Positions 23,096-63,292 of a stretch of DNA of 64,000 nt are shown one piece after another (position 1 is the stretch's first letter; the number at the start of each line of letters is the position of its first letter). The stretch lies in the IMG/VR virus record IMGVR_UViG_3300024333_000003. One strand, given 5' to 3'. The stretch is from a virus. Its lineage: Duplodnaviria > Heunggongvirae > Uroviricota > Caudoviricetes. The position numbers and the translations under genes were made by a program. Under the pieces are notes generated by a model. The model ran no database searches and was not told where the DNA came from. It saw nothing but the letters and a program-made list of their open reading frames with translations.

Positions 23096-23104
23096 GGTAT
23101 AAGA
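23096..23104 (+). promoter_or_regulatory. GGTATAAGA promoter element (-10-like TATAAG)
   Basis: One of 13 same-strand intergenic copies of this 9-mer. Confidence 0.5.
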
Positions 23105-23156
23105 TAGTTATAATTTAGAAGCTTTCTTCAAACAAAAACTCTAAAAAAGGAGAACT

Positions 23157-23351
23157 ATGGCTAAACGTCGTAGAAAGAAAAAGTTTTCTAATTTTCATAT
23201 AAAAGCACTACAGTCGTATAAGGTTTTACCTAGTGAAGATACAATAACACTTGCGAACTTGCGCGATCCAAGACTAACAAGAACAGATGGTGGACAAGTA
23301 CGTCCTGTATTTTATGATGAAAATCTAAATGTAGCCTTTGGGTCAAATTAG
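23157..23351 (+). CDS. small highly basic protein (MAKRRRKKK...), lone + strand cassette
   Basis: RBS aaaggag 7 nt upstream. Own promoter and terminator. Confidence 0.45.
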   Translation: MAKRRRKKKFSNFHIKALQSYKVLPSEDTITLANLRDPRLTRTDGGQVRPVFYDENLNVAFGSN

Positions 23352-23385
23352 TTTTGGGTCCGAAAGGACCTAAAACTTTTTTTAC
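23350..23385 (+). terminator. rho-independent terminator
   Basis: 12-bp stem agttttgggtcc/ggacctaaaact (one G-U pair), GAAA loop, T7 run. Confidence 0.8.
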
Positions 23386-23386
23386 T

Positions 23387-24169
23387 TTACCAAGAAATAG
23401 GAAAAGAATATACGATATTGTCAATTTCTACCTGTCTAACTTGTGCCTGCTGTGATATCAAAAACATTGCTTTATTAACTGTTTTTATAGTTACTACACG
23501 CCATCTGACACCTAATCTATCGACGATTATATCGGTGGGACTTAAAACAGGGGTGTTACTCATCGTTATTATAGCATCACTATCCTGCCAGTCACCATAT
23601 GTTGTTAACACATGTCTGGGAGGATTATTATTCATTTGAGCTCTGAACCTGTGTGGAAGATAATAACCTCCAGTATACTTGGTATCAAAGCAAACTGTGC
23701 ATTTAGAGTCAGATTGACGCTGCAAAGTCTCATCATAACATGCGGTGCAAAAAGTTCCAAAAGTCTTGCGTTTTAATAATATAAAATCTGCACCACTTAA
23801 TCGATTAAGCACCAATTCACGATGTTTAATAATATACCTAGCATCGTTGTCGGATGTTACTGAAAGACCCTTTGGCAAAGAATAAACAGTCTCTTCAGTA
23901 GTATTATTTATTACGGCTATTTTATAATTGTATGTGGCGTACTTTGTAGTTAGACCAGAAATGGTTATATCATTATACGATCCATGATAATACGGAGAAA
24001 TACCTGACGCAACTAAATCATAATCCGCTGCTTGCAGGGAAGGTAATTCGCTTCTATAAATATCAATATGATAATCTAAGAAACTTTCAGTTGTTGGTTC
24101 CAATGTCCAACTAACAGTTATAAACGACGGCGACACTTGCGCCAATGCGGTATCAAGAATCTTTATCAT
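23387..24169 (-). CDS. hypothetical structural protein
   Basis: ORF after the capsid gene. Confidence 0.3.
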   Translation of the reverse strand: MIKILDTALAQVSPSFITVSWTLEPTTESFLDYHIDIYRSELPSLQAADYDLVASGISPYYHGSYNDITISGLTTKYATYNYKIAVINNTTEETVYSLPKGLSVTSDNDARYIIKHRELVLNRLSGADFILLKRKTFGTFCTACYDETLQRQSDSKCTVCFDTKYTGGYYLPHRFRAQMNNNPPRHVLTTYGDWQDSDAIITMSNTPVLSPTDIIVDRLGVRWRVVTIKTVNKAMFLISQQAQVRQVEIDNIVYSFPISW

Positions 24170-24645
24170 TAATATACGTCAAAAGAAAATGGAGAACTAA
24201 AACCGCCATAAGCTTGATTAACATTAAAGCGAATTTTTGCAGTCTCCACTGCTTTCTCAAATTTTGGTCTCATTACATTATAATAATTAATATAACGTCC
24301 CCATTTATCGTGATGGCTTATTTGTACTCCACCAGCATCAGAAAAAGCCAGCATATTTCTAGCCGAGCTGATTCCCTTTGCGGTCAGTAATTCTAATATA
24401 GCTCCTAATCTAACTGTACTCCAAGGCATATAGCCATTCTCACCTGGTTCAACTACCACATCTGCGATAGTCCAATAAGTAATTGGTGAAAATTCCATGT
24501 TGATGGTGTTTAAAGATTGTTTTATAAAATCAGCTAACTCATCATCAGTGGATTCAAAATCTTCGTCTAATTCGTTGAGTTGTGGCTGATCGTTCAGATA
24601 GCGTCTTAATGCTTTTGCAGCTTCTTCGTAAGTTGTATATGCCAT
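24169..24645 (-). CDS. hypothetical structural protein
   Basis: ORF. Confidence 0.3.
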   Translation of the reverse strand: MAYTTYEEAAKALRRYLNDQPQLNELDEDFESTDDELADFIKQSLNTINMEFSPITYWTIADVVVEPGENGYMPWSTVRLGAILELLTAKGISSARNMLAFSDAGGVQISHHDKWGRYINYYNVMRPKFEKAVETAKIRFNVNQAYGGFSSPFSFDVY

Positions 24646-24653
24646 AGTGCCTC

Positions 24654-25034
24654 TTAATGTGTACGACGAACAATCCTATTGGTAAATAACTTGCCATTCT
24701 CCACCATATACTTTTCGCCGGAGTCTAAGTTGATATGTATATCATAATAATATACACTGGCTCCATCCATTAATAGCGACACAGTGGGCTCTGCAATAAA
24801 TTGTAATTGTGCTGAACCGTCAGCGTTATTTGTAACCTCACCTATACCCGAGGCTGTCGTATACCTTGTTATATGAATTGAAAATACAGCATCTACATCA
24901 GGAAGATCAACATCAGATTTAACGGTCCAGAAAGCATCTGTTACAATATGGCTGCCAGGCACTGTACTCAACGTGCGGGTTAAAGAATACGTGTCACCAA
25001 TAGTAAAATCATCGATATTTTTAATATCTTGCAT
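24654..25034 (-). CDS. hypothetical structural protein
   Basis: ORF. Confidence 0.3.
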   Translation of the reverse strand: MQDIKNIDDFTIGDTYSLTRTLSTVPGSHIVTDAFWTVKSDVDLPDVDAVFSIHITRYTTASGIGEVTNNADGSAQLQFIAEPTVSLLMDGASVYYYDIHINLDSGEKYMVENGKLFTNRIVRRTH

Positions 25035-25077
25035 TTGTTCTCCTATTAATATACTAAAAAATTATATAAATGTCAAC

Positions 25078-25107
25078 TAATAAAAAAGGCCAACAAATCT
25101 GTTGGCC
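25078..25107 (-). terminator. rho-independent terminator after the candidate capsid gene
   Basis: Minus strand reads GGCCAACAgattTGTTGGCC followed by TTTTTTATT. Confidence 0.8.
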
Positions 25108-25137
25108 TTTAAAATAATGTACCGCTTTTACCAAATG

Positions 25138-26052
25138 TTATGCATTTGACCAAGTTAATTTTGCAACTGCCTTGTTGTTGATAATAGCCATACCAATGGT
25201 CTCATATGCGGACCACTTAATCAGGTTACGTTTCTTCTCTATCCAGAATTTAACATCGTTTAGGACATAGAATTTACCCATAAATTCCTGAGGTGCGAAC
25301 GCATACATTGTGCCTTCTGGAACCAAATCGCCCTTAATTGTCGTTACGAACTTTTTGCCCAAAATTGTTGCGTATTTAAAACCGTTAATATACACTTCAC
25401 TTGCAGCCGGCGAACCTACTGTCGTTGCAGGTAGTGTAGCTAGTTTATTGTAATCTGCTTGGTTCATTAACACTACATCAACTACCAATGGATTTGTTCC
25501 AGTTGTGGAATCTTCCATCTTGTTGAATAGTTTTGTGAACATGTTCAACTCCATAATTCCTGAAGTTGTGGTTGTGTACGTTACCGTCTTACTCGAAGCT
25601 GCAACTGCTGCTGCTACTGCAGTCATGAATGCTGTATCTTCAATCTTCATGATCTCTTTTACTGCATTACGTTCAACTAGTTCAGTTATTGGCATTTCAT
25701 ATGCTAATAGCTCTTCTTCAACCTTTTGGAATTCTTTCGAACTAATACCAAAGAAAGAAACCTCTGCACGGTCGCCTTCAACGTATTGAACGTCTGGTTG
25801 TCCGCGTAGAGTAATCATCATTGCACCTGCATCCGGTTCGATGTCAACGATTTTAACTAATTGCTCGTGTAATGTAGTACGCTGTAAATCAGCCTTAGTT
25901 ACATATTGTGGGTTAATAATTTTGCGAGAAAATGCGTTCTCACGCAATTTGGTACGAATATACTGACCAACCTCTTGTGCCACCTTCTCTAATTCAGTAT
26001 CAAGGCGGTTAACGAAAATTTCGTTCAATGCTTTAGTGTTTACACTTTCCAT
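25138..26052 (-). CDS. putative major capsid protein (HK97-fold size class)
   Basis: 304 aa. Immediately followed by a strong terminator, the typical position and expression context for an MCP. No motif proof. Confidence 0.4.
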   Translation of the reverse strand: MESVNTKALNEIFVNRLDTELEKVAQEVGQYIRTKLRENAFSRKIINPQYVTKADLQRTTLHEQLVKIVDIEPDAGAMMITLRGQPDVQYVEGDRAEVSFFGISSKEFQKVEEELLAYEMPITELVERNAVKEIMKIEDTAFMTAVAAAVAASSKTVTYTTTTSGIMELNMFTKLFNKMEDSTTGTNPLVVDVVLMNQADYNKLATLPATTVGSPAASEVYINGFKYATILGKKFVTTIKGDLVPEGTMYAFAPQEFMGKFYVLNDVKFWIEKKRNLIKWSAYETIGMAIINNKAVAKLTWSNA

Positions 26053-26064
26053 TTTCTAATCTCC

Positions 26065-26508
26065 TTAGACAGTCTGAATATCGATAACGGTATACGTTGT
26101 TCCGAGGTACGTGAGTGAATACGGGGCTTTCACGCAAAAAGCCACAATGTGATCTGTTCCTAAAGTTGCTGTTGCAAGTTTTCCACCCGCGCCAGTCTTT
26201 AGAGGATCACCTAAACTTGGAGTTGATAAATATTGATCTGTCGTTGCAAATACTTTACCAACAATGACAGTCACTTTTTTGGTGTTAACCACATCTGGTG
26301 TCCAGCCTACTAAGCCGGTTCGATATGATTCGTTCCAAATAGGCCATGCTAATCCTGTGGCAGCTTGTGTCAGGGTCGCTTCATTACTAGCGTTTAGTGT
26401 AACCCATGATCCCTGAACACCCGAAGATAACACTTGACCAGCGCCTGATTGTGATAATGTTAATTCTTTTCTAAGAACTAACGAAATATCGCTGAATATT
26501 TTAAACAT
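26065..26508 (-). CDS. hypothetical head protein
   Basis: ORF. Confidence 0.3.
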   Translation of the reverse strand: MFKIFSDISLVLRKELTLSQSGAGQVLSSGVQGSWVTLNASNEATLTQAATGLAWPIWNESYRTGLVGWTPDVVNTKKVTVIVGKVFATTDQYLSTPSLGDPLKTGAGGKLATATLGTDHIVAFCVKAPYSLTYLGTTYTVIDIQTV

Positions 26509-31992: not shown

Positions 31993-34653
31993 TTAATTAT
32001 TAAATGCAGAGGCACGGTAATATAATTCTGCAGCCAGGTCTCCATACAAAATGCTATGGAAGGTGTCGTCGGCGGCAGACTTAATATATCTGTACGTGTT
32101 CTTTTCTTCGTTATATTCAATCGCAATAGCCAGTATATCTTTCGCATAATATTGAAAGTCACTCCATTGCGGGAAAACGATCTTCCGCTGTTTTATCTTA
32201 GTAAATAAATCAGTCATCACGGTGTTGCGAGATAAGGTATATGCCTGAATATGCCCATTGAACTGACCACGTTGTTTTTGATTCGGCACATGTTGAAATG
32301 CTATTAATCTGGTTTTATCATTTATACGATTTCGTACTTCAGCATTCACTGCCTCACCAAAACCGGCATCAGCTCCTATTAATGCACAGCCCCATCTGTA
32401 ATATTCTGCCGGTATATGCTCATGTAGATAAGCATAATCAGCTTCTTTACCTTCATACTTATGTAGGTAGATTATTTCTGTAACATCACCGCGACGTTGC
32501 GAAATTGTCATCAACGTTTTTGACATTTCGCTGTTAATTGGCCCCCAGTCCATTCCCATAAACGTGGGATAATCTCTGGTGCGACGATCTGGTTCCTGAA
32601 TCATTGGCCCACCAGTGCAACATGCTTTAATTTCCTCTTCGGTTACTGGAGCGACACCGGCATCATATGGTAGCCCTAGATACTCGTTAAAAAATACGCC
32701 TTTGGATTTTGTTTGAAATGGTATATAAACATCCGTCTGCCAATTTACCCAAGGCGCGTGGGCAAACATTAAAACACTAACTCTAAACCCCTCAAACAAG
32801 TACGATCCATCATGAATAGATTTGTCTGATTCGGGATTTGTACGCACCCATTGTCCGTTGCGCGCGTCTAGAGACATTTTGCAATATCTACAAGCAAGCC
32901 CCCATGGTTGAATGTTTTCTTCGTCAAGAAAGTTTTGTTTCTCACAATGCTGGCATTTTGCAATCCATTCATTTCTAGTAGTCTGACGCCATCGATTTGC
33001 TAATGGCCCGATAATATGTTTTGGAGTTCCTGCATATATCGAATGTTTGTAAAATGATCGCGCCATTGTTTGTTCAATGACATCGATGTTATCATCGGGA
33101 ATATCTTGGATTTCGTCCAGACACTGATGACACACTATAGGTAACTTTTCTATCGCATCTCTTACAAAAATCAAGTGATTCTTTACGCCGACACAATAAA
33201 CTGGTCCAATGTAATCTATATATTCGATGCGCGAATTATTTGTATATCCGTTCCAAAATATTATGCTGTCTTTTTTATAGCGTCCGACGTTATATAAAAT
33301 TGTTCCGTTATATGCTGGTTTTCGACTTCTAATACTACAAAGATACCCCAAGCGAAGCCATGCCTCCTGTACTGTATTTGCTAACTCGATTGATGCTGTA
33401 ACTAACTGTCCCCCGTTATGACCGAAGTCTTGTACATGCATGGCATCTCCTTTATATAAGGCATTTAAAAGGTCCGGTAGATATTGTATGTAATTTAATA
33501 ATTCCCTAGGTATATATTTATCATGCGAGGTGCCCAAAGCATATAAGTATCTAGATAAAGCAGCGTTTGCAAAGTAAAATGTATTACATACAGCATTTTT
33601 ATTATGTCTGGCAACAACGCCCCATTTAACTCCCATTGCTGTTAAGCAATGTCGAATTTCGTCTGAGTATGCACCTTCGTTTTGTATTATACGTATTTGT
33701 CCCGCAGGAGATATATACCCCTCAGCTAAAAACCACCCCATAAATTGCATGAAAATTTTCAATGGCGCTGAAAAACTGGGTATCTTTTTGGGATATTTAT
33801 ACGGAGATCCGTCTAACTTATTTGCAACAATTTGTTCAGGTAATTTAAAATCGACGGGATTGGCTGACTCCCAATTTCCCCTAACACCTAATTTAAAATT
33901 TTTTCCTGCTAACTGTTGTGCTTTTATATTAAACCAGCCTTTAACTTTTGGATTCTGATAGTAACCAGTACTTAATTCCTGTGATACGTTCATTATATGA
34001 TCAGGGGTCACGCAAAGATTAAAACTGCGCTGCGTAAATTTAACTAGTTTACCTTGATATGCTTTTTGGATATACATATCGGGTAAATGATATTCTACCA
34101 TTCCCGTTTTGTCATTTACTGTAGCAACTCTTTCATCGTCGAGAAGATTTTTAAATAATTTCCAACCATTCTCGGTGAGAATTTCTGTATTTGCATCAAA
34201 ACAATTCATGTCAGCAGATATACCACGAATACGATCGGCAGTTGCAGATCCATAACGTAAATAAATAACACTACCATTAAGGAAACGTTTTTGGAATACG
34301 TTTTGAATTGTGGAACTACTTACAAAATATTTTTTAAATATCGGGCTTTGTTCTATAACAGTATCAACACGATCATATGAAAATACGCGTACCTGTTCAA
34401 CAGTGGGCGATACTGCCAAAATTTTAAATCCACCCTTATGCCTGTTGCTAACATATGGCATTAAAATACATTTAGCTAACATGAAATTTGACAGCGTGGT
34501 AGATTTAGCGACTTGGCGACTCGTATGTAAACACAACTTCATTGGATCAATATCATAAATCAATTTCATGTGTGGATAGTCATCCAAACTGAATGGTTCA
34601 TTATTAAGATAAAAAAACTTTTGTACGAAGTCTGATAATTTAAATTGTAACAT
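31993..34653 (-). CDS. terL: terminase large subunit interrupted by an intein (extein ~526 aa)
   Basis: N-terminal deviant Walker A TSRQVAKST. A Walker-B-like LDE is reconstituted across the intein. C-terminal nuclease-sized domain. Confidence 0.7.
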   Translation of the reverse strand: MLQFKLSDFVQKFFYLNNEPFSLDDYPHMKLIYDIDPMKLCLHTSRQVAKSTTLSNFMLAKCILMPYVSNRHKGGFKILAVSPTVEQVRVFSYDRVDTVIEQSPIFKKYFVSSSTIQNVFQKRFLNGSVIYLRYGSATADRIRGISADMNCFDANTEILTENGWKLFKNLLDDERVATVNDKTGMVEYHLPDMYIQKAYQGKLVKFTQRSFNLCVTPDHIMNVSQELSTGYYQNPKVKGWFNIKAQQLAGKNFKLGVRGNWESANPVDFKLPEQIVANKLDGSPYKYPKKIPSFSAPLKIFMQFMGWFLAEGYISPAGQIRIIQNEGAYSDEIRHCLTAMGVKWGVVARHNKNAVCNTFYFANAALSRYLYALGTSHDKYIPRELLNYIQYLPDLLNALYKGDAMHVQDFGHNGGQLVTASIELANTVQEAWLRLGYLCSIRSRKPAYNGTILYNVGRYKKDSIIFWNGYTNNSRIEYIDYIGPVYCVGVKNHLIFVRDAIEKLPIVCHQCLDEIQDIPDDNIDVIEQTMARSFYKHSIYAGTPKHIIGPLANRWRQTTRNEWIAKCQHCEKQNFLDEENIQPWGLACRYCKMSLDARNGQWVRTNPESDKSIHDGSYLFEGFRVSVLMFAHAPWVNWQTDVYIPFQTKSKGVFFNEYLGLPYDAGVAPVTEEEIKACCTGGPMIQEPDRRTRDYPTFMGMDWGPINSEMSKTLMTISQRRGDVTEIIYLHKYEGKEADYAYLHEHIPAEYYRWGCALIGADAGFGEAVNAEVRNRINDKTRLIAFQHVPNQKQRGQFNGHIQAYTLSRNTVMTDLFTKIKQRKIVFPQWSDFQYYAKDILAIAIEYNEEKNTYRYIKSAADDTFHSILYGDLAAELYYRASAFNN
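33124..34203 (-). mobile_element. intein (360 aa) with a LAGLIDADG homing-endonuclease domain inside terL
   Basis: Block A CFDANTEILTENG. Block B CVTPDHIMNVS. LAGLIDADG-like FMGWFLAEGYIS and LLNALYKGDAMH. Block F VYCVGVKNHLIFV. Block G LPIVCHQ followed by +1 Cys (C-terminal Gln instead of Asn). Confidence 0.6.
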
Positions 34654-38931: not shown

Positions 38932-38965
38932 AGAGAAATTTACGCATATTTAATATAAATGTCAA
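38932..38965 (-). promoter_or_regulatory. sigma-70-like promoter TTGACA-17-TAAATT with the ATG 5 nt downstream (leaderless)
   Basis: Minus strand reads TTGACAtttatattaaatatgcgTAAATTtctctATG. Confidence 0.55.
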
Positions 38966-38971: not shown

Positions 38972-38980
38972 GGTATAAGA
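38972..38980 (+). promoter_or_regulatory. GGTATAAGA promoter element, back-to-back with the divergent minus-strand promoter
   Basis: aTGGTATAAGAt upstream of gene 39007. Confidence 0.5.
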
Positions 38981-40834: not shown

Positions 40835-40843
40835 GGTATAAGA
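40835..40843 (+). promoter_or_regulatory. GGTATAAGA promoter element
   Basis: aTGGTATAAGAat with a possible -35 TTGTTT 17 nt upstream. Confidence 0.5.
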
Positions 40844-40905: not shown

Positions 40906-41541
40906 TTGTTAATATTTAAGGAGATTCACATGAGTCAACTTCCGTTAGTTCCCACACAATTGGTGGCCGAATTTCGGGCTTTCGCGCGCGTGCATGATAT
41001 GCGAAGGCAAGAACTGAAAAAAGCCTTGCTCACCAATGTGTACTCGAGTCTTGATAAGCGCCGCATTGTTGTGGTGTTGAAGGATCGAGTTGCACCTGGA
41101 TCAGATCGCCGTAAATTTTACCCAGAGGTAAAAGGAGCAACATTACATATCCAAGCAAATGAGTGCGGACCATTTTCCAAGGGTTCGGGATCATTTGCAC
41201 AGGTTGTAACAGATCTCGAAGGAAACAAATTAAGGCCAATCGTAGATTTCGCCAAAGTAAAAGGCGGATACGTAGCTCCCGGCGGACATCGTGCGATTTT
41301 TGATGCCCCAACATTAATGGTATTAAAGGCCTACCAAGACCAAAATGTGGTTACGATAAGCAAACTCACACCATATGTTGATGGTGAAGAAGCATGGATC
41401 CATGAAGATGCCATGTGCGTAGTGCCAAAAAATCAGGCATTGCCACCCGAATGGGAAAAATATACACCGGCTTTTCAGGCGTTATTGGTACGACTACATA
41501 AGGTCGCCACTATTGAATTACATTATGGTATCATAGGATAG
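40906..41541 (+). CDS. hypothetical protein
   Basis: RBS aaggag. Confidence 0.35.
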   Translation: MLIFKEIHMSQLPLVPTQLVAEFRAFARVHDMRRQELKKALLTNVYSSLDKRRIVVVLKDRVAPGSDRRKFYPEVKGATLHIQANECGPFSKGSGSFAQVVTDLEGNKLRPIVDFAKVKGGYVAPGGHRAIFDAPTLMVLKAYQDQNVVTISKLTPYVDGEEAWIHEDAMCVVPKNQALPPEWEKYTPAFQALLVRLHKVATIELHYGIIG

Positions 41542-43080: not shown

Positions 43081-43089
43081 GGTATAAGA
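43081..43089 (+). promoter_or_regulatory. GGTATAAGA promoter element
   Basis: aTGGTATAAGAt. Confidence 0.5.
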
Positions 43090-45994: not shown

Positions 45995-46808
45995 CTTTGA
46001 TTCACCACATACTAGCATCCTTGAACACGAAAGACCGGAATCACGGGTTGAGGCTCATTTTATGATTGCATTAACTAGCGACGAAGCACGTGAATTTTTA
46101 ACTGAATTTGGTTTCGATATAATAGCTAAATATATATACACCGAACAGCACTCAAGTCCACTAAATGTCACATTCACAGATCTATCTGATTCAGCTATAG
46201 CATCGGGAGCCATACAATACTTCGAAGAGTACTCTGCGCTAAAATTGCACAAAGTATTAAATAAGTACGGACTAGACGCATATAACGTATTAACACGTAA
46301 TAACAAGGCAGATAGTATCACCGTTAAAGACATACTTGAATCAAGCATGTATACATACAGCACACAGTACAAGTTATTAAATAGTTTCGGTGTATTTGCC
46401 ACCACGATATTAAATGCAGATCATGAACGTATATTGACCCCCGCTGCTTTTATGATAATTCAAGATCGAATAGCTGGCGTTGATGAAAATCTATTTAAAT
46501 TATTTGAAGCTTATGTAAATTCGGCACCATTATTTTCAATTGCACCAATTCTCGAATGTGTGCCCCGTACATTGCACGCATCTGATCTAAAATTTAGCGC
46601 TATATATCATCCAAGAGCGCTGCCCATATTTGTTCAGATGTTACAAACAATCGATCCGACTATATTAAATACACATCGCGATAATTTTAATAACTGGTTA
46701 ATTACAAATGTACCGAGCAGTCAATTCGAAGCTTTTGGTGTTGTTGCTGCTGGAGCGTTACAAAGTTTTTATGACAATTTACTCGAAAAGAGTGATTGGC
46801 CAAAATAG
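45978..46808 (+). CDS. hypothetical protein
   Basis: ORF. Confidence 0.3.
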   Translation: MGEPVDFDSPHTSILEHERPESRVEAHFMIALTSDEAREFLTEFGFDIIAKYIYTEQHSSPLNVTFTDLSDSAIASGAIQYFEEYSALKLHKVLNKYGLDAYNVLTRNNKADSITVKDILESSMYTYSTQYKLLNSFGVFATTILNADHERILTPAAFMIIQDRIAGVDENLFKLFEAYVNSAPLFSIAPILECVPRTLHASDLKFSAIYHPRALPIFVQMLQTIDPTILNTHRDNFNNWLITNVPSSQFEAFGVVAAGALQSFYDNLLEKSDWPK

Positions 46809-46831
46809 CTCAGAACATGGGCTATTTTTTT

Positions 46832-47065
46832 TTATTTTCTTGAGGATGAGGGGATATATTTTTTTGATTTATTTTTGGCGAATGTAATGTGCTTTAGGGC
46901 TGAAGGAAGTAATGCGGTATAAGAACATAGAAGGATTAGATGTCCTCTTTCTAACCGACACCGTGCACGGTTTTTGTCACAAAGGGAAGGCGAGTAACTA
47001 TCGCCACCTTCTCTTTTACATAAATGAAAAAGGGCAGCCTCAGCCACCCTTTTCATAATTTTCAA
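46832..47065 (-). CDS. hypothetical small protein
   Basis: ORF. Confidence 0.25.
   Translation of the reverse strand: MKIMKRVAEAALFHLCKREGGDSYSPSLCDKNRARCRLERGHLILLCSYTALLPSALKHITFAKNKSKKYIPSSSRK
46916..46924 (+). promoter_or_regulatory. GGTATAAGA promoter element. It shares a 17-nt identity (ggtataagaacatagaa) with the copy at 57340 and is followed by a short palindrome plus T5.
   Basis: cGGTATAAGAACATAGAAgg. Downstream accgtgcacggt followed by ttttt at about 46961-46977. Confidence 0.4.
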
Positions 47066-47222: not shown

Positions 47223-47412
47223 CGTCTTTTGCTTCTATTAACGATTCCAATATTTCGTTGCAAAGCTCGTTGTATAACTCAAAAAAATCTTTTGTGGTTA
47301 CTACTCCGCCAGGCACGGTAAGCTGGATTAATTGCGCCGCTAACTCTGCAATTTGCATCTTCATATCAACTTCTTGATGTACAAGAGCTAGTTTTATATC
47401 ATTTAATTTCAT
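47188..47412 (-). CDS. hypothetical small protein
   Basis: Leaderless promoter immediately upstream. Confidence 0.35.
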   Translation of the reverse strand: MKLNDIKLALVHQEVDMKMQIAELAAQLIQLTVPGGVVTTKDFFELYNELCNEILESLIEAKDDVVSQMQSKEV

Positions 47413-47446
47413 GGTATAATATACGAAATTATTTAAACAAAGTCAA
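47413..47446 (-). promoter_or_regulatory. sigma-70-like promoter TTGACT-17-TATATT with the ATG 5 nt downstream (leaderless)
   Basis: Minus strand reads TTGACTttgtttaaataatttcgTATATTataccATG. Confidence 0.5.
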
Positions 47447-47451: not shown

Positions 47452-47460
47452 GGTATAAGA
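47452..47460 (+). promoter_or_regulatory. GGTATAAGA promoter element. An additional TGGTATAAT extended -10 lies at 47412-47420.
   Basis: gTGGTATAAGAg upstream of gene 47563. Confidence 0.45.
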
Positions 47461-53482: not shown

Positions 53483-53516
53483 ACGTAATATTACTCAAAT
53501 AATCTGAGTATGTCAA
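53483..53516 (-). promoter_or_regulatory. sigma-70-like promoter TTGACA-17-TAATAT with the ATG 5 nt downstream (leaderless)
   Basis: Minus strand reads ctaTTGACAtactcagattatttgagTAATATtacgtATG. Confidence 0.55.
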
Positions 53517-55044: not shown

Positions 55045-55078
55045 ACAAGAATATACGAAAGTATATTCAAAAATGCAA
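55045..55078 (-). promoter_or_regulatory. sigma-70-like promoter TTGCAT-17-TATATT with the ATG 5 nt downstream (leaderless)
   Basis: Minus strand reads TTGCATttttgaatatactttcgTATATTcttgtATG. Confidence 0.5.
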
Positions 55079-55087
55079 GGTATAAGA
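55079..55087 (+). promoter_or_regulatory. GGTATAAGA promoter element, abutting the divergent -35 box
   Basis: aGGTATAAGAat upstream of gene 55131. Confidence 0.45.
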
Positions 55088-55130: not shown

Positions 55131-56246
55131 ATGATTCTTATCGGAATCGTTATTATTGCAATTGCTGAAGCAGTTTGTTTTGTGTTTTTTAAAGACAAAA
55201 TGTCTTGGCAGAAATATGTAATACTACTGAATATTGGGTTTATAATTTTATTCGGTAGTCAATTAATAGCTACATATGGAACAGCTTTAGAAACTGAATA
55301 TATCGGCGAATATGCGTTAGCATGTGATTACTATGAACCATGGAATGAATGGCATCATGATATGTGTTCACGCGACATTCCTTCGGGGACTGATTCAGAC
55401 GGTAATATTACATATACCACATATTACTATGATTGTTCACATGTGGATAGTCATGGACCTAGTTATAAAATAACTACAAATCTCGGTAAAAATTATGACG
55501 TAGATTTGGGTATGTATAACTACTTAACCAAGATATGGAAAAATAAACAATACATAGACCTAGGCCGAAATTATTATACACAGGATGGTGATAAATATAC
55601 TACACATTGGAATAACGATGATCATACTATTATTCCATATATTAGTACACAACTATACACTAATAAAACACGACATGCGCCAAGTGTATTTAAATTCTAT
55701 CAGCCTGATACAGCACATATAAAATTGTTTAATTATCCGAAAGTGATAAATAACACCTGTCCTTCGATATTGCAAGAAGGGAATATAATGGATTATACTC
55801 AAGCAGATCAGCTGCTGACAAATTACAATGGCTTAATCGGATCAGTAAAACAAGTACGTATGTGGTTATTAATATTCCACGACCGGCCAGATGGATACGC
55901 TGTTCATCAAGAAAGCTATTGGAAAGGTGGTAATAAGAACGAAGTAGTTGTATGTGTAAGTATTAACGATACGGCCAAAATACAGTGGGCTAAAGTCTTC
56001 TCATGGACTAAACGGAATGATATGAAAGAAGATATACAAGCTATGATATTAGCTCAAAGTAAATTCGATCCATTGACTACGGTGACTAATCTTAAAGATA
56101 TAGTGGCCCAAAAATTTGAGCGGCGGCAATTTAAGGAATTTGACTATTTGACTGTAGAAATAGAACCAATCATACAAATACTTATTCTTTCATTATTGTT
56201 AATGGTACTAATAATAACTATTATATTTTTCACAATAAGGAATTAA
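55131..56246 (+). CDS. membrane protein (N- and C-terminal TM helices)
   Basis: RBS aaaggat. Hydrophobic ends. Confidence 0.35.
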   Translation: MILIGIVIIAIAEAVCFVFFKDKMSWQKYVILLNIGFIILFGSQLIATYGTALETEYIGEYALACDYYEPWNEWHHDMCSRDIPSGTDSDGNITYTTYYYDCSHVDSHGPSYKITTNLGKNYDVDLGMYNYLTKIWKNKQYIDLGRNYYTQDGDKYTTHWNNDDHTIIPYISTQLYTNKTRHAPSVFKFYQPDTAHIKLFNYPKVINNTCPSILQEGNIMDYTQADQLLTNYNGLIGSVKQVRMWLLIFHDRPDGYAVHQESYWKGGNKNEVVVCVSINDTAKIQWAKVFSWTKRNDMKEDIQAMILAQSKFDPLTTVTNLKDIVAQKFERRQFKEFDYLTVEIEPIIQILILSLLLMVLIITIIFFTIRN

Positions 56247-56692: not shown

Positions 56693-57339
56693 GAAAAGTA
56701 CATTTTTTACTTTTCAAAAAAACTTTTTACCCAAAAAATCCGAAAAAATTTTCCTTCGCAAAAAATTCTCATTTTGATACACTTTTTTGGTCAAAAACCC
56801 CAATGATTTTGCAACAAAAAATGACCGGTGCAGCAGCGGACCCGCATAAACAGGGGCCAGAAAAATTTTTTTCAAAATCAACTTCGACCGGTCCCATGAA
56901 AAATCGCATTTCCGATCAATGAAATCAGCTTAAAGTAAATTGTGAACTCAGAATTAGACCTATTTATATTTATTTTTAGTAAAAGTAATAATATTCTAAA
57001 GTTGAAATAAAATTGATTTTCAAATATTAAAAAACGACCCCTAAAAATGAGGATCGATATTACGCTAAAACCCTCATTTTTATTTAAGATTTTACTTTAG
57101 CGTGGTGTGCTAAGTGCTTAATTTATAAGAACTTAATCCCTCAAAAACGCGAAAAACGCGACCGGTCCCTAAACGGCGATTTTGTTCCAAAATCGCTAAT
57201 TTCAAAACGTAAGTTTAAAGGCCTTCAATCAACTGCTTAAAATACACCAAAACGGCCATTTAATTTTGTCACGCGACTTTGTCAAAAATATGATAAAATG
57301 ACGAAAAAATCTGCTTGTGGTCCCATAGCCATTCACCGT
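56693..57339. other. ORF-free A-tract-rich region, a candidate replication origin or regulatory hub
   Basis: Multiple A5-7 tracts. GACCGGTCC appears twice. AAAAACGCG is repeated directly. Divergent promoter-like elements. Confidence 0.35.
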
Positions 57340-57348
57340 GGTATAAGA
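57340..57348 (+). promoter_or_regulatory. GGTATAAGA promoter element
   Basis: gTGGTATAAGAACATAGAAaggag upstream of gene 57368. Confidence 0.5.
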
Positions 57349-57367
57349 ACATAGAAAGGAGTATATT

Positions 57368-57910
57368 ATGAAATACGCAATATTACTCATTAGCACGATT
57401 CTTTTATATAACGTGATAGATTCCAGCACATTACCAAAAATTACGTCTATACAGGAACTGTGCGAAATTAGACAGGTGTCCTATAGTATGATCAAACGAC
57501 AAATATTCCGTGAGTCGTCTTATCGACCACATGTTATCAGCCATAAAGGCGCGGTAGGATTAATGCAGGTGTTGCCATCAACTGCCAGCGATTTCTGTCA
57601 ATATTCAATAACTATCGAAATGTTGAAAGATAAATTATTCAACGTAACTATAGGAATACGCTACTTATTGCATTTGCGTGGATTTTATATTTATCTAGGA
57701 TATGATTCGAGCAAAGCAATGCAGTTAGCCATGTGTTCATACTATGAAGGACCCGGTGCTACTATATCTAGGCACTTCAAGGGTAAGCTTTGTAAGGCAA
57801 CAAAAAAAGCTTACTATAGATATTATGTATTTAATAAAACACCAAAACCATTAACCAATTTGCCTAAAGTTAAATTAAACTCTTACGCAAAATTTATTGT
57901 CGGAGTATAA
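57368..57910 (+). CDS. SLT-domain lytic transglycosylase with an N-terminal signal/SAR-like hydrophobic segment
   Basis: FRESSYRPHVISHKGAVGLMQVLPSTA. N-terminus MKYAILLISTILLYNV. Confidence 0.65.
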   Translation: MKYAILLISTILLYNVIDSSTLPKITSIQELCEIRQVSYSMIKRQIFRESSYRPHVISHKGAVGLMQVLPSTASDFCQYSITIEMLKDKLFNVTIGIRYLLHLRGFYIYLGYDSSKAMQLAMCSYYEGPGATISRHFKGKLCKATKKAYYRYYVFNKTPKPLTNLPKVKLNSYAKFIVGV

Positions 57911-58445
57911 TATGAATATAGCGATTCACTTTGCCGACTTCAATGCATATGGGTGTCCGCAATGCGGGTGTTCTTCCGCTACTGGTTATCTTTCTGGGAA
58001 TGGGACAACTTGCGTACAATGCCTTGAATGCAAGGAAGCTTTTTATATTGTTTCGGATCATCTATCAGTATCTACCATAGGTCATGGTGATCCTGCCGTA
58101 TTTCCAGAGGTATCACCACATCCACGTGCGCATGTTCCAGCACATAATTTGGTAGTGCCAGACAACCCACCTCCCGAGGGGGAATATTTTGCGCCCAGAG
58201 GTGTTGGTTATGATTTGGCTGGATTTGTAAGATGTAAGCAAGCCGGAGAACGAATAGTTCAAATGTTTACAGAGATACTACGGTGTAAACCAAAAACTTT
58301 TCTTGATTATCGTCCAAATGAACCACTGTGGATTCAGGTTAAGGTAAAAGCTGAAGATCATATAGATCTTGAAAAACTTAACGAACTTACGCAAAACGGA
58401 ATCATTACAAAACAAAAGATACAGCAATGTTTAATTCAGGTATAA
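57897..58445 (+). CDS. Cys-rich (zinc-ribbon) protein
   Basis: CPQCGC...CVQCLEC. Confidence 0.3.
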   Translation: MSEYNMNIAIHFADFNAYGCPQCGCSSATGYLSGNGTTCVQCLECKEAFYIVSDHLSVSTIGHGDPAVFPEVSPHPRAHVPAHNLVVPDNPPPEGEYFAPRGVGYDLAGFVRCKQAGERIVQMFTEILRCKPKTFLDYRPNEPLWIQVKVKAEDHIDLEKLNELTQNGIITKQKIQQCLIQV

Positions 58446-58447
58446 GA
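58439..58447 (+). promoter_or_regulatory. GGTATAAGA promoter element
   Basis: aGGTATAAGAt, followed by a ~460-nt ORF-free region. Confidence 0.45.
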
Positions 58448-58448
58448 T

Positions 58449-58903
58449 AATAAGTACCAAAGCTATCATTATATGGAAGGCGCATACCAACCATATTAAT
58501 GATTAAATCATGTTACTCTAATCTGCGGACGTGAGTGTGGTTCTAAATAGTAGTATGCTAACGCGAAGCATATACTAAAAGGGACCGTTGGAAGATAACA
58601 ACGTATTATCTCCAAACTGGTGATGACTATGCAAAAGTCGTTGCTTGGGTGATGATAAAAGCAGGTACTCTTTTCAGCCTATTCAATGTATGACTGAAGG
58701 GTATGCGCGAACAAAAAATTCATCCAACCTACATTGGGTCTATGCATCTACATAGGGTTGGGTCGAACTGGACTATTACTAGGATAGCCGAGGGGTACCG
58801 GCGAAAAGGTACAGTGTGTACATCGAAATACATACTTCTGAATACTAGATGATTCAGCCAAGAACAAAATCTGGAGGATCGTCCTAGCGGATCCTCCATT
58901 TTA
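58449..58903 (+). ncRNA. candidate non-coding RNA (a promoter-to-terminator unit with no ORF of 30 aa or more). Function unknown.
   Basis: Bounded by the promoter at 58439 and the terminator at 58873. Locally higher GC. Several hairpins, e.g. gtatgct-N7-agcatac. Confidence 0.3.
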
Positions 58904-58905
58904 AA
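58873..58905 (+). terminator. stem-loop terminator
   Basis: ggaggatc-N9-gatcctcc followed by ATTTT. Confidence 0.55.
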
Positions 58906-58915
58906 GGAGTAATTT

Positions 58916-59741: not shown

Positions 59742-59965
59742 GTACCAAAGATATAATTTATACGGGCATACTTATTCTTTTTGCCGTAATATTATTTGAA
59801 CAACAGCTACAGATAAATGATAATTACACTGAAGCACAAATGCGACAACTAGATTATGTAGCTGAGAAAGCAAAAATTAAGGATCGTATGAAACAAATGC
59901 AAAAGACAATCGACAGTTTAAAGATATCTTCTGATTCTATAAAAACTTATTATCTATATCATTAA
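59738..59965 (+). CDS. small membrane protein with 1 TM plus coiled coil, a holin/spanin candidate
   Basis: IIYTGILILFAVILF followed by a charged coiled coil. Confidence 0.3.
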   Translation: MSTKDIIYTGILILFAVILFEQQLQINDNYTEAQMRQLDYVAEKAKIKDRMKQMQKTIDSLKISSDSIKTYYLYH

Positions 59966-59974
59966 AGGAGCATT

Positions 59975-60136
59975 ATGCAAAATGTTAATATTTATGCTGT
60001 AATTGGTTTTATTGTAGCGTTGTTATTAGATTTTTTGGCGATACAATTAATACTATTCAAAAATAAGCGCTGGGGGCTAGTCCTACACATATTTTGTATG
60101 ATTCTAGCTTTCATCTCGGGATTTTATCTTCTATGA
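59975..60136 (+). CDS. small 2-TM membrane protein (53 aa, below the ORF-track threshold)
   Basis: RBS aaaggag 5 nt upstream. ATGA overlap with the next gene. Confidence 0.35.
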   Translation: MQNVNIYAVIGFIVALLLDFLAIQLILFKNKRWGLVLHIFCMILAFISGFYLL

Positions 60137-60624
60137 TACGCCTCGGAATAGTACCTATAGATGAGGTATTCACACAGATTTATGACGGCCGAGGGCGTCC
60201 AGATCGATTAATCTGTGGACAATGGATACACATGGAGTCAATACGTTATAAGGTATTTCGTCAAAGCCTAAGCTGTAAACACTGCGGACTACGTGGAGAA
60301 TATTTTGCTGTGGAAAAACATATTCACGGGTACGATGCCAGTGTTGAGAACACCAGATATCATCTTAATTTATACGCACGTGTTGGTGATGAAGAAATAT
60401 TATTTACTAAAGATCATATATTACCCAAGTCACTGGGCGGCAAAGATGACCTAGAAAATTTGCAGACATTATGTGTTAAATGCAACCATAAAAAAGGTAA
60501 CAATATAATAAAGGACCAGCATTTGATTCCTTGGCCAAGTAAACGAATTAAGATGAAAATGATTGCAGAAGCTGTTAAACAAAAGAAAGGAGTAGTCTAT
60601 GGCGGTATATGTAATGTGTTCTAA
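60133..60624 (+). CDS. HNH endonuclease (start trimmed to MIRLG)
   Basis: HILPKSLGGKDDLENLQTLCVKCNHKKGN. Confidence 0.65.
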   Translation: MIRLGIVPIDEVFTQIYDGRGRPDRLICGQWIHMESIRYKVFRQSLSCKHCGLRGEYFAVEKHIHGYDASVENTRYHLNLYARVGDEEILFTKDHILPKSLGGKDDLENLQTLCVKCNHKKGNNIIKDQHLIPWPSKRIKMKMIAEAVKQKKGVVYGGICNVF

Positions 60625-60829
60625 ACACGGAGAATGCAAAAATGCACATCCAGGCGATCCGTGTCCTAGGTGCGGAAAGCCTGTGATTCAAACCGTGTTA
60701 ACGTCAAAGCCAACACATATTCCCCGTGATCTAGGGAATCAAGTTGGTAGTATAAGTCATCGTACCCATAGCGACTATGAGCATGTTTCTATGGGAGGTC
60801 GAATTCTACCACATCGTATCATTAATTAA
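60599..60829 (+). CDS. small zinc-ribbon protein
   Basis: C..HGEC...CPRCGKP. Confidence 0.3.
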   Translation: MAVYVMCSKHGECKNAHPGDPCPRCGKPVIQTVLTSKPTHIPRDLGNQVGSISHRTHSDYEHVSMGGRILPHRIIN

Positions 60830-60860
60830 CATATTAACCACATTTTTTAAGGAGTAATTT

Positions 60861-61820
60861 ATGCTTGTATTTATCGGAATATTGGGATGTATTGGTATGG
60901 CTTATGGTATAATTGGTATTGTAAACAAAAAGAATCCGGAGTTTCGATTACGCGCTCCTCGTACCATACTCGCCATTGGATTTATAGTTTTCATTGCTAT
61001 CATCAATTTCAAGATTGTTAACGGACAAAAAGTTGGTGTGTTATTTAAACCTAGTGGTATTGATACGGTAGCAGTTCAGTCCGGCTGGCGCTTTGTACCA
61101 ATATGGTATGATCTTTTTCTTATGGATAAAACTGTACAGGTATACACATTTTCAAATAAGCATAATGAGGGCGCAAAAAGTGAGTATGACGCTATATGGG
61201 CTCCTACCAAAGATGGTATCAAGATGGGATTTAATCTTACCGTACCTTGGCGTATAGATCCAAATTATGCACCATGGATTTATGCCAATGTAAGTGAACA
61301 AGATGGTAAAGATCGGTTTGAGTGGATCGAAGAAAACATTATCCGACCAATGGCAGTTGCGGCTCTACAAATGTCGGCCAATGATTTTACCCCTGTTGAA
61401 CTGTATGGTGAACGTCGTAAAGATTTACAGGCAGCGGCTTGGAAAAAAATGCAAGCTAGTTTCCGTGAATATCATATTCTTTGCGATGGCATATCTCTTA
61501 GAGAGGTATTTTATAATGAAGCATATGAAGCCATGATAAACAAGAAAAAACTTGAAGAACAAGAAAAGCTACGTCTTGAGGTTGTAACACAGCAAAAAAT
61601 CGAACTCAAGAAACAAGCCGATATAGATAAATCGATTGCAATAGTCGGAGCTGAGGGGCGGGCGCGTGCATTGCAAATCGAGGGGCAATCTGTTACTAAC
61701 AATCCAAAAATAGTAGCACTAAAATGGATCGAAAGGTGGAATGGGCAACCTCCACAAACATATGTAGGTGGAGCTGGAAAAGAGCCGATGTTTATATTGG
61801 ATTTGAAAGACACTAAGTAA
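60861..61820 (+). CDS. SPFH/band-7 (stomatin/prohibitin/HflKC-like) membrane protein
   Basis: N-terminal TM helices. SPFH-like core VGVLFKPSGIDTVAVQSGWRFVPIW. C-terminal coiled coil. Confidence 0.55.
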   Translation: MLVFIGILGCIGMAYGIIGIVNKKNPEFRLRAPRTILAIGFIVFIAIINFKIVNGQKVGVLFKPSGIDTVAVQSGWRFVPIWYDLFLMDKTVQVYTFSNKHNEGAKSEYDAIWAPTKDGIKMGFNLTVPWRIDPNYAPWIYANVSEQDGKDRFEWIEENIIRPMAVAALQMSANDFTPVELYGERRKDLQAAAWKKMQASFREYHILCDGISLREVFYNEAYEAMINKKKLEEQEKLRLEVVTQQKIELKKQADIDKSIAIVGAEGRARALQIEGQSVTNNPKIVALKWIERWNGQPPQTYVGGAGKEPMFILDLKDTK

Positions 61821-61821
61821 C

Positions 61822-61830
61822 GGTATAAGA
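61822..61830 (+). promoter_or_regulatory. GGTATAAGA element
   Basis: aCGGTATAAGAat. Confidence 0.35.
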
Positions 61831-61878
61831 ATATAAGTACACGATACCCTCCCTTTCGTGTATCTAAGCCTTCCTAAT

Positions 61879-61916
61879 GCACGAGTTTCTGACTGGTTAC
61901 TCGTGCATTTTTTTTA
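61879..61916 (+). terminator. rho-independent terminator
   Basis: gcacgagt-N12-actcgtgc followed by a T9 run. Confidence 0.8.
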
Positions 61917-61918
61917 CG

Positions 61919-61927
61919 GGTATAAGA
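61919..61927 (+). promoter_or_regulatory. GGTATAAGA promoter element
   Basis: cGGGTATAAGAt upstream of gene 61953. Confidence 0.45.
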
Positions 61928-61952
61928 TTAAATAACGAAAGGAGAACCAGTC

Positions 61953-63170
61953 ATGGAAAAAGATTATGATATGATCGTAAAACGACGATCAAGAAAAAAG
62001 ATTCGTAAATTTATTCAGCACAACCTTGTTGGTGATGCTAAGAATAAAAAAGTATTATTTCTTCCAGGGGTCACCGCGTATGATGTATTTGAAATTTTTG
62101 ATCCATTAGGGTTCAAGAGGGAAAACTTATATGGTTTAGAATGTAATCCTTCGCTGTATCCTCAAGTACAAAAAATTGCGCAACAGTTAAAATTTAATCT
62201 ATTACCAAGGACTACCTATGCTGATTTCGCAACAATCACCACTCAGGTATTTGATGTAATGTGGCTTGATTTTCAAGGACAATTTACACAAATTGGTGGC
62301 ACGTCCCCTAATATCTTAGCCAAAGATGGTATTGTAATCACTAATTTTTTGGGAGCACGTGAAAACGGATTTTCTGCCGAAACCTACGCTTTTATGAAAA
62401 ATATCTATAAAGATTTAAACAAAGAGGCGCTTGTCAGTGTTTTTGTATTAAGCATGTTTTCCGAGAATTACCCTTGTAATGCAGTCGATTTTGTGACCGG
62501 TATGAATAAAGAGGAATTCGATAATTCATTTCACGAACGGATATCAGCAACAAGTACAAATAATGTAATCTCCGAGGATACATGGGAATGTATAGAAGAG
62601 GATGCCGTAAACATGACACGTAGATATTGTCAAGATTTATTAAAAGAATTCCTCAAAGCTGCTGATCATAACATTCCCTATGAGGCGCTTGCAAAATTCT
62701 TGTGGGCAGCCAAAGTTCAGCCACGTCGTGTGATGGATCACTCTGCATTTAAGTACAATAGTAATCCTAGCCCCATGTTCATTGATATGTTTTCATTTGC
62801 TCCAATAATGATAAATATGCATATTCCAGCAACCATACAGACATTAGAGCAAGCCTTAAAAGATATTGTAGATCATGGAACAGCAGCATTAGTGTCCACC
62901 ATATGTGAAGCGCTAGATTGGTTTATAGATCGAAACGTAGTTCCCACAATACAAGCCCGTATTGATCTGGGAAAAGAAAAAGAGGCGGAAAGGAGAATAC
63001 TTATGGATTCAATACGAGTTCATTTAAAAGCAGGCGACAAAATGCAGGCGGCGAAGGTCTTAGTAGAAAAAAATCCTACTATGTCTTCAAACGCTATTGC
63101 TAAGTTGACCGGCACCAAGAAAATGGCCGTTGCGGGACTTAAGGCACATAGAACCCGACGGCTAGGTTAA
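61953..63170 (+). CDS. hypothetical protein (405 aa) with a C-terminal HTH-like segment
   Basis: RBS aaaggag. Confidence 0.35.
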   Translation: MEKDYDMIVKRRSRKKIRKFIQHNLVGDAKNKKVLFLPGVTAYDVFEIFDPLGFKRENLYGLECNPSLYPQVQKIAQQLKFNLLPRTTYADFATITTQVFDVMWLDFQGQFTQIGGTSPNILAKDGIVITNFLGARENGFSAETYAFMKNIYKDLNKEALVSVFVLSMFSENYPCNAVDFVTGMNKEEFDNSFHERISATSTNNVISEDTWECIEEDAVNMTRRYCQDLLKEFLKAADHNIPYEALAKFLWAAKVQPRRVMDHSAFKYNSNPSPMFIDMFSFAPIMINMHIPATIQTLEQALKDIVDHGTAALVSTICEALDWFIDRNVVPTIQARIDLGKEKEAERRILMDSIRVHLKAGDKMQAAKVLVEKNPTMSSNAIAKLTGTKKMAVAGLKAHRTRRLG

Positions 63171-63178
63171 TAAGTAAA

Positions 63179-63207
63179 ATGTGACGAATATCCGTCACAT
63201 TTTTTTA
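63179..63207 (+). terminator. rho-independent terminator
   Basis: atgtgacg-aatatc-cgtcacat followed by a T7 run. Confidence 0.85.
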
Positions 63208-63214
63208 CTATTTT

Positions 63215-63223
63215 GGTATAAGA
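63215..63223 (+). promoter_or_regulatory. GGTATAAGA promoter element
   Basis: tTGGTATAAGAat. Confidence 0.45.
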
Positions 63224-63283
63224 ATCATGTTTCCAAGAACGGGAGCGGCATCGGAGATGCGGTGGTAGGAGGGTGGGGATTTT

Positions 63284-63292
63284 GGTATAAGA
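63284..63292 (+). promoter_or_regulatory. GGTATAAGA promoter element
   Basis: tTGGTATAAGAt. Confidence 0.45.

Follow-up and report, generated by a model that had tools for sequence, protein, structure and literature searches.

Why should a single nine-base word, GGTATAAGA, stand again and again between the genes of a phage, always on the same strand, and which polymerase would read it? The question is raised by the 64,000-nucleotide stretch of the tailed-virus record IMGVR_UViG_3300024333_000003 (hereafter the window), part of an uncultured phage whose genome measures about 215 kb, judging by the longest contig that carries identical proteins. An original prediction, made from the letters of the window, had proposed that the word marks a phage-specific promoter class. 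We report here that GGTATAAGA is very probably a promoter element, and that the RpoD-like sigma factor encoded by the phage is the most likely candidate for its reader, a link that we infer from comparison of sequences.

An all-or-none word on one strand

Thirteen exact copies of GGTATAAGA were found in the window, all on the + strand and each at the coordinate originally given. That such a number is not random, as had been argued, was borne out by 100 dinucleotide-preserving shuffles, in which the mean was 0.59 copies and the maximum 3; the word is the top non-trivial 9-mer of the window by frequency. The window can be lengthened by 9.4 kb on the left and 2.2 kb on the right with identical assemblies of this phage, and each extension yielded one more + strand copy (L023:5732 and L014:18898). 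The original prediction had named an equal frequency inside genes and on the other strand of the full genome as the observation that would speak against it; over the window and its extensions (75,686 bases) the count was 15 on the + strand and 0 on the − strand. The next commonest words, CAAAATATT and AATATTTTG, were rejected as signals because every copy lies inside open reading frames (ORFs), on either strand.

Seventeen one-mismatch variants of GGTATAAGA were scored. They occur on both strands, 16 of the 17 lie within genes, and they are background; weaker intergenic variants were looked for and none was found. The word therefore behaves in an all-or-none manner, unlike ordinary bacterial −10 boxes. 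When the 15 sites were counted position by position, the information proved to be confined to the nine bases of the word. Weak preferences were seen around it, for T at −4/−3, W at +9 and T at +12, the last being followed by a purine at +13/+14. Nothing rose above background between −45 and −5, where a −35 partner would stand, and no conserved TTG was found upstream, in agreement with the earlier statement that a conserved −35 is missing.

The hexamer contained in the word is TATAAG at 15/15 sites, and no other register gives a conserved T−7. Position 8, which corresponds to the T−7 captured by primary sigma factors, is thus a G in every copy, and a single G-to-T change there would produce the perfect extended −10 TGGTATAAT. 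The G at the −14 equivalent is likewise present in 15/15 copies, and a T at the −15 equivalent in 7 of the 13 window copies and 8 of the 15 overall. These seven copies with a T just upstream (TGGTATAAGA) had been noticed before, as had two longer identities, both real, among them TTATGGTATAAGA around the copies at 40835 and 43081.

The copies and what follows them

The copies, and three features standing next to some of them, are listed below (SD, Shine-Dalgarno sequence).

23096-23104, + strand: GGTATAAGA, 52 nt ahead of the ATG that opens an isolated 64-aa ORF (23157-23351), itself nested in the − strand structural block
38972-38980, + strand: GGTATAAGA, 26 nt before ATG 39007, which has the SD AAAGGAG
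40835-40843, + strand: GGTATAAGA within TTATGGTATAAGA, upstream of ORF 40906-41541; a leader hairpin is possible
43081-43089, + strand: GGTATAAGA within TTATGGTATAAGA, 55 nt before ATG 43145, heading a block of 12 small + strand ORFs
46916-46924, + strand: GGTATAAGA, following the + strand terminator 46802-46828 at a distance given as 78 nt; then an ORF-free stretch without SD-led small ORF (46925-47030)
47412-47420, + strand: canonical extended −10 TGGTATAAT, continuing ATAC, in tandem with the next copy; the same element type stands before the sigma gene in relatives
47452-47460, + strand: GGTATAAGA, 102 nt before ATG 47563
55079-55087, + strand: GGTATAAGA, 43 nt before ATG 55131
57340-57348, + strand: GGTATAAGA, 19 nt before ATG 57368 (SLT lytic transglycosylase)
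58439-58447, + strand: GGTATAAGA, overlapping the stop of ORF 57897-58445; then about 470 nt without convincing ORF (58448-58915)
61822-61830, + strand: GGTATAAGA, 2 nt past the Band_7 stop, heading a two-hairpin unit of about 80 nt
61835-61917, + strand: that unit, a candidate small RNA, with a hairpin, then a G+C-rich hairpin and a U-run (intrinsic terminator); minimum free energy −26.2 kcal/mol, z = −6.6
61919-61927, + strand: GGTATAAGA, directly after the terminator of the preceding unit, 25 nt before ATG 61953
63215-63223, + strand: GGTATAAGA, 11 nt past the terminator 63176-63203 plus T-run
63284-63292, + strand: GGTATAAGA, 60 nt after the 63215 copy; then about 330 nt without SD-led ORF (63293-63621)
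L023:5732, + strand: GGTATAAGA, about 3.7 kb upstream of the window start
L014:18898, + strand: GGTATAAGA, about 28 nt past the window end, directly after an intrinsic terminator

All 15 copies are co-oriented with what follows them. An SD-led start codon was found downstream of 8 copies, with 19 to 102 nt between the end of the word and the start codon, a wider range than the 20 to 70 nt first proposed. Most copies are intergenic, as had been claimed for all of them. The exception is the copy at 58439, which runs into a stop codon; the one at 46916 falls within a mechanically called − strand ORF (46832-47065), which is probably not a gene since it lies downstream of the − strand terminator 47054-47027.

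Three copies (61919, 63215 and L014:18898) stand immediately after intrinsic terminators, and one copy upstream of the window has a tRNA-Val gene downstream of it. The copy at 61822 and the terminator that follows bracket the structured stretch of about 80 nt, and together these are predicted to form a complete small transcription unit. No SD-led ORF was found in the stretches headed by the copies at 46916, 58439, 63215 and 63284, which are candidate non-coding RNAs; the ORF-free units, 61835-61917 included, gave no Rfam match even at E ≤ 1. The T at +12 followed by a purine fits a start site 5 to 7 nt beyond the word.

The order of terminator, copy and SD-led start codon, the tRNA gene and the terminator-bounded small RNA downstream, the co-orientation and the conservation at an orthologous site described below give good support to a promoter class, and we regard it as highly probable that GGTATAAGA is a promoter element. 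It would be the core −10-region element of a −35-independent class: RNA polymerase would bind the word, melt the DNA within it and start about 5 to 7 nt downstream, at the purine after the conserved T. The + strand units transcribed in this way would comprise the small-ORF blocks, the SLT, HNH and Band_7 genes, tRNA-Val and several short non-coding units.

Two neighbouring features deserve mention. ORF 61953-63170, which is flanked by four copies, has no detected homologue and is an ORFan. The gap 56882-57367 (486 nt) contains, on the − strand, a TTGACA (57280) and a terminator (57056-57035), and a second non-coding unit is possible there.

Conservation of the word in relatives

Relatives of the phage were collected through the sigma protein (64-79% identity). 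They keep the gene order OmpA-ABC-HNH-tRNA-...-ThiF-SLT-sigma-PolA-...-sheath. At the orthologous site running from HNH through a hairpin to the tRNA gene, this phage shares the exact word with L240 (sigma 79% identical) and L323 (71%), and the flanking bases differ among the three. Because it persists in diverged relatives with different flanks, the word is old in the clade and under selection where it is kept. Variants occupy the site in L322 (GGCATAAGA), L241 (GGAACAATGA) and L026 (GGTAATATGA).

The hairpin just downstream of the word at this site, TTTCCyrG-TTTAyaTAAA-CyrGG(T)GG, shows compensatory changes between relatives (L023:5741-5775, L240:5818-5852, L323:932-965, L322:240-331 with two copies, L241:6331-6366), and persists in genomes that have lost the 9-mer. 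Upstream of the window are three tRNA genes of the phage, for Met, Val and Ser (L023:5003-5085, 5840-5914 and 6345-6436); a TATATT box lies 5 nt before the 5′ end of tRNA-Met, and tRNA-Val is behind a copy of the 9-mer.

In distant relatives, found through the protein encoded at 55131-56246 (33-45% identity), the promoters are different. The equivalent small-ORF region of L018 has TTATTGTATAATA, a canonical −35-less extended −10, in four or five copies, and L022 has Bacteroidota-style AATATTTGG...TAnnTTTG promoters. TTATGGTATAAGA, found twice in the window, differs from TTATTGTATAATA at two bases, both T-to-G. These genomes were set aside as comparators, being too distant and having other hosts and other promoters.

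Use of the word in other viruses

The proposal that the word is phage-specific could be kept only in part, as the same usage recurs in two or more further families of viral contigs that seem unrelated to this phage. L065 (IMGVR_UViG_3300025655_000163) has 5 copies of GGTATAAGA, L105 (IMG/VR …3300017613_001772) has 6 and L109 (…3300027917_000059) has 3, in each case on one strand, after terminators and before SD-led genes. No protein similarity to the window was detectable in the stretches of L065, L105 and L109 examined.

L065, L105 and L109 were the only instances of promoter-like use in a tandem-pair scan of IMG/VR, whose other matches were for the most part repeats within coding sequence (MORN 'WYKNG', collagen-like), tandem repeats or arrays resembling iterons. 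The same scan of bacterial genomes showed no host clade among the matches listed, which were dominated by CRISPR repeats and repeat families. An exact 17-mer scan of IMG/VR gave chance matches only, no nucleotide relatives were found among cultured phages, and a literature search for the word returned nothing relevant.

Two candidates were discarded. The CAACCATTAAGATACAA array in L021, a distant relative, was rejected as a promoter class because its copies cluster like iterons within a single intergenic region (L021:17410-17660; gaCAACCATTAAGATACAA six times, about 35-40 nt apart), possibly an origin. In a metagenome-assembled genome of Melioribacteraceae (CAXXGC010000001.1, 552-568 kb, L150/L235), a large CRISPR array has a 37-nt repeat, GTTTCAATCCTTGTTATGTTGGATTGGGTATAAGAAC, which ends in the phage word. 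This repeat ending in GGTATAAGAAC was set aside; none of the 81 spacers of the array matches the phage sequences compared, and the resemblance is probably a coincidence of search design.

A second promoter class, back to back with the word

A different promoter type, which we call class A, is found in the window on the − strand only. Intergenic TTGAC[AT] occurs 6 times on the − strand and 0 times on the + strand, and the class A consensus, TTGaca-17-TAtATT, varies from copy to copy as host promoters do.

25048-25076, − strand: TTGACA-17-TATATT, after the terminator following the major head protein gene, with an SD-containing leader
38937-38965, − strand: TTGACA-17-TAAATT, box 5 nt before ATG 38931, no SD
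47418-47446, − strand: TTGACT-17-TATATT, box 5 nt before ATG 47412, no SD
53488-53516, − strand: TTGACA-17-TAATAT, box 5 nt before ATG 53482, no SD
55050-55078, − strand: TTGCAT-17-TATATT, box 5 nt before ATG 55044, no SD

With the −10 box 5 nt before an SD-less ATG, the last four promoters imply leaderless mRNAs; strong SDs are present on all + strand genes. In Chlorobaculum tepidum, whose RpoD groups with that of Bacteroidetes, differential RNA sequencing gave the RpoD consensus TTG-N17-23-TA[ATC][ATC][AT]T, in which about 4 nt separate the box from +1 (10.1101/172254). Class A promoters fit this consensus, which is of the Chlorobi/Bacteroidota type, a host group that is only presumed for this phage. 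Similar promoter-like sites, TTGCAA/TTGAAT-17-TAAATT, are found at the Melioribacteraceae rpoD locus.

At three loci (38960/38972, 47441/47452 and 55073/55079) the reverse complement of the 9-mer lies 0 to 6 nt upstream of a class A −35. The copy at 38972 is separated by 6 nt from the − strand TTGACA 38965-38960, and that at 47452 by 5 nt from TTGACT 47446-47441; the one at 55079 directly abuts TTGCAT 55078-55073 of the divergent − strand promoter. The same arrangement is found three times in L065, as TCTTATACC-N3-TTTGCA-17/18-TATATT or TATAAT (L065:3826-3952 and two more sites). Since two polymerases would hardly fit one such pair, a mutually exclusive promoter switch is possible. Host-type promoters would serve the − strand, and occupancy of one promoter of a pair should hinder the other.

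The reader of the word

The window encodes a sigma factor close to its left end.

561-1361, + strand: phage sigma factor, RpoD-like, with regions 1.2, 2, 3 and 4, of which 2, 3 and 4 score above Pfam cut-offs

Its nearest cellular relatives are the short (about 284 aa) primary sigmas of Bacteroidia, Marinilabiliales and Melioribacteraceae (Bacteroidota/Ignavibacteriota), at 43-47% identity. At least 427 viral stretches of IMG/VR encode relatives of it, and primary-type sigmas are therefore common in large uncultured phages.

In sigma-70-type holoenzymes, as studied in E. coli, A−11 and T−7 are flipped into pockets of sigma (PMC10979975; PMC4593229), and a T−7A change lowers affinity 210-710-fold (PMC3753650). 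The G at the T−7 position of the word is retained in three diverged lineages. As it is found in 15/15 copies, though a G-to-T change gives the perfect TGGTATAAT, which exists at 47412, the word seems to have been selected to differ from a host −10. In L026, L322 and L323, the sigma gene stands behind its own canonical TGTATAAT / CATATGTATAATATAC extended −10. Host polymerase can thus make the sigma first in these three relatives, and the host enzyme evidently reads T at the position in question.

The invariant G at the T−7 place suggests that the reader is most likely not the unaided host holoenzyme. A strong extended −10 for host polymerase, one of the two mechanisms first put forward, is the less likely of them for the same reason, together with the host-type promoters bearing the proper T elsewhere in the genome; a phage sigma, the other mechanism, is plausible and is the one we prefer. 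Host core polymerase carrying a phage-encoded specificity subunit would read the word, and the RpoD-like sigma is the best candidate for this subunit. We consider it quite possible, a little short of an even chance, that the window's own sigma is the reader.

Compared with cellular RpoD, regions 2.1-2.4 of the phage sigma have K for R at the position of E. coli 385, T for Y/F at 425, and F at 441; these differences are suggestive only. A further step would be that the sigma is of primary type with its −7 pocket re-specified from T to G, that GGTATAAGA is a private promoter code orthogonal to the host, and that the back-to-back sites are a built-in switch shutting off the leaderless − strand genes once the phage holoenzyme takes over. 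This fuller scheme, taken as a whole, we judge unlikely.

Two observations on the sigma locus of relatives may be added. A small divergent gene, of ribbon-helix-helix type in L026, is inserted before the sigma gene (L026:9602-10000, L322:4530-4725, L323:5108-5304). The conserved CATATGTATAATATACAC element of the sigma gene in the same three genomes looks like an operator-overlapped extended −10, and the same element type is found at window position 47412.

Several observations weigh against the phage sigma as the reader, and some of them speak for the explanation that comes next, namely that the host RpoD holoenzyme, unaided, reads the copies as early promoters, a −35-less extended −10 being kept identical for strength, and the phage sigma serving the −35-containing structural genes of the − strand. 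The sigma keeps its −35-reading helix, LTRERIRQ, unchanged, which suits class A better, and the structural genes carry −35/−10 promoters. The small ORFs and accessory genes that the word serves look like early genes, and those are as a rule transcribed by host polymerase. L018, with invariant TTATTGTATAATA in the equivalent region, two bases away from TTATGGTATAAGA, and L022 have host-type promoters, in near-identical copies, in front of comparable small-ORF regions, so that invariance alone is no proof of a phage factor. The use of the same word in L065, L105 and L109, which share no detectable proteins with the window, would be explained by a shared host enzyme. No sigma residue was found to co-vary with the presence of the motif among the relatives compared; A93, beside the W-dyad, was tried and rejected, as it is restricted to the first two motif-bearing phages and L323 has S93 together with the motif. 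No enrichment of the motif was seen at 80 IMG/VR loci encoding related sigmas. Finally, about 76 of some 215 kb were examined, and another factor may be encoded elsewhere in the genome.

A bacterial occurrence has also to be counted on the side of the host holoenzyme: on a Zixibacteria chromosome the word lies 12 nt before a tRNA-Val gene. This tRNA gene also has TTGACA-17-TATATT about 50 nt upstream, so that it is ambiguous, and it was not retained as an example of use. Against a host reader stand the invariant G where primary sigmas require T−7, the TATAAT-type box before the relatives' sigma gene, where the host enzyme reads T, and the resemblance of class A, not of the 9-mer, to the RpoD consensus of the host group. 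We hold reading by the host holoenzyme to be somewhat unlikely.

It is improbable, in our estimation, that the word is read through another phage factor outside the sequence seen, be it a second sigma-like protein, a factor of the T4 gp55 type or a phage RNA polymerase. The portion of the genome examined leaves room for such a factor, several large window proteins are without family or PDB match, and the promoters of dedicated phage polymerases and factors typically show such all-or-none invariance (T7, T4 late, phiKZ early). On the other hand, the window showed no protein resembling an RNA polymerase or gp55, the search for a phage RNA polymerase among its large unknown proteins giving no PDB or family match, and a full sigma is already encoded, which implies use of the host core polymerase.

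That the word is not itself a promoter, and serves instead as the site of a phage DNA-binding regulator of divergent promoters or as an RNA-level signal (processing or translation) in + transcripts, is very improbable: its position 0-6 nt from a − strand −35 at three loci and similarly in L065, as well as its strand specificity, would suit one or the other, but a divergent partner is missing at 12/15 copies, the word is no palindrome, copies placed just behind strong terminators would often leave an RNA motif untranscribed, no other conserved −10-like box lies downstream, and the distance to the start codon is variable (19-102 nt).

Comparison with known promoters

Under the preferred reading, a promoter word recognised through the RpoD-like sigma of the phage, GGTATAAGA can be set beside several known systems. 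It resembles the extended −10 promoters of the sigma-70 type (TGnTATAAT) in its location in the −10 region, the absence of a need for a −35 and the core TATAA. Of the TG that precedes the hexamer in such promoters, the G (−14 equivalent) is invariant in the word and the T at −15 frequent (7/13). Canonical promoters of this kind are used by relatives, as TTATTGTATAATA in L018 and, in L026, L322 and L323, as CATATGTATAATATAC ahead of the sigma gene. The word differs from them in the last base of its hexamer, G in 15/15 copies against a near-universal T−7, in a fixed G at −13, and in tolerating no mismatch.

The late promoters of T4, TATAAATA, are recognised through gp55, acting together with gp33 and the sliding clamp. 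The likeness here lies in a single short, near-invariant, A/T-rich word of the −10 region, without −35, present in many copies and strand-specific. The word itself is different from TATAAATA, and it serves small accessory and RNA genes, not structural ones: the − strand holds the virion genes (tail sheath, terminase, head protein, protease), and these follow promoters of other kinds. No relatives of gp55, gp33 or the clamp loader were found among the window proteins scanned, and the sigma is a full-length RpoD-like protein rather than a minimal region-2 protein like gp55.

The RpoD promoters of Bacteroidota/Chlorobi (TTG-N17-23-TAnnTTTG, or TA[ATC][ATC][AT]T near +1) are relevant because the phage sigma is of this lineage. 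Class A fits them; the 9-mer has neither a TTG partner nor a final T, its last bases being G-A, and TATAAG fails at the last position.

Sigma cascades are known from phages such as SPO1 (gp28 and gp33/34) and phiEco32 (gp36), where a phage sigma redirects the host core to a non-host consensus. The sigmas of SPO1 and phiEco32 are highly diverged or resemble extracytoplasmic function (ECF) sigmas, and serve middle and late genes, whereas the sigma described here resembles a primary sigma (43-47% identity to cellular RpoD), and its connection to the motif is drawn by inference. A phage-specific promoter consensus is a familiar kind of thing; the new details are the word, the G at −7, the primary-like sigma and the back-to-back geometry.

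The phage and its possible host

Genes on the − strand code for the tail sheath, the major head protein, a protease-like protein and a terminase that has an N-terminal insert, as well as for a ligase and an enzyme of the radical-SAM type. On the + strand are SLT, sigma, a split family-A DNA polymerase, a MazZ-like deoxynucleoside triphosphate (dNTP) pyrophosphohydrolase, runs of small ORFs, HNH and Band_7, with PARP-like genes beyond the window. The G+C content of the phage is 37% and its ribosome sites are strong (AGGAG); the Melioribacteraceae rpoD locus also has SD sites, with a G+C content of 35%. Shared SD sites and similar G+C content make an Ignavibacteriota-like or other host of the FCB (Fibrobacteres-Chlorobi-Bacteroidetes) group plausible, though unproven.

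The family-A DNA polymerase gene (1362-3431) is split by a 252-nt ORF-free insert (gap 2379-2630), which looks like an intron or a mobile-element site. A search of the insert against Rfam at the gathering threshold returned nothing. Inserts in the polymerase of L026 and L241 contain HNH or LAGLIDADG ORFs; the gene is uninterrupted in L240, L322 and L323. The ORF at 3697-4074 (+ strand) encodes a MazZ-like dATP/dGTP diphosphohydrolase N-terminal domain (PF18909) and stands beside the polymerase in all relatives. It hints at a function in base modification (of the 2-aminoadenine type) or in the dNTP pool; no PurZ was seen in the window. The large terminase (31993-34653, − strand, 886 aa) has an N-terminal insert of about 400 aa resembling the methylase/ThyX-like segment of Lak megaphages and other phages.

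Meaning of the word for the phage

If the word is indeed a promoter, it maps one temporal class of transcription units and several candidate small RNAs in an uncultured jumbo phage, whose host belongs to a poorly studied group and is probably a bacterium of the Ignavibacteriota or of a related FCB lineage. If it should prove to be an early promoter read by the host, the finding would be an ordinary one. If the RpoD-like sigma reads it, the phage would possess a natural primary-type sigma with a changed −7 specificity, of help in understanding how the −10 element is recognised and possibly of use as an orthogonal expression part, and more than 400 stretches of IMG/VR encode such sigmas.

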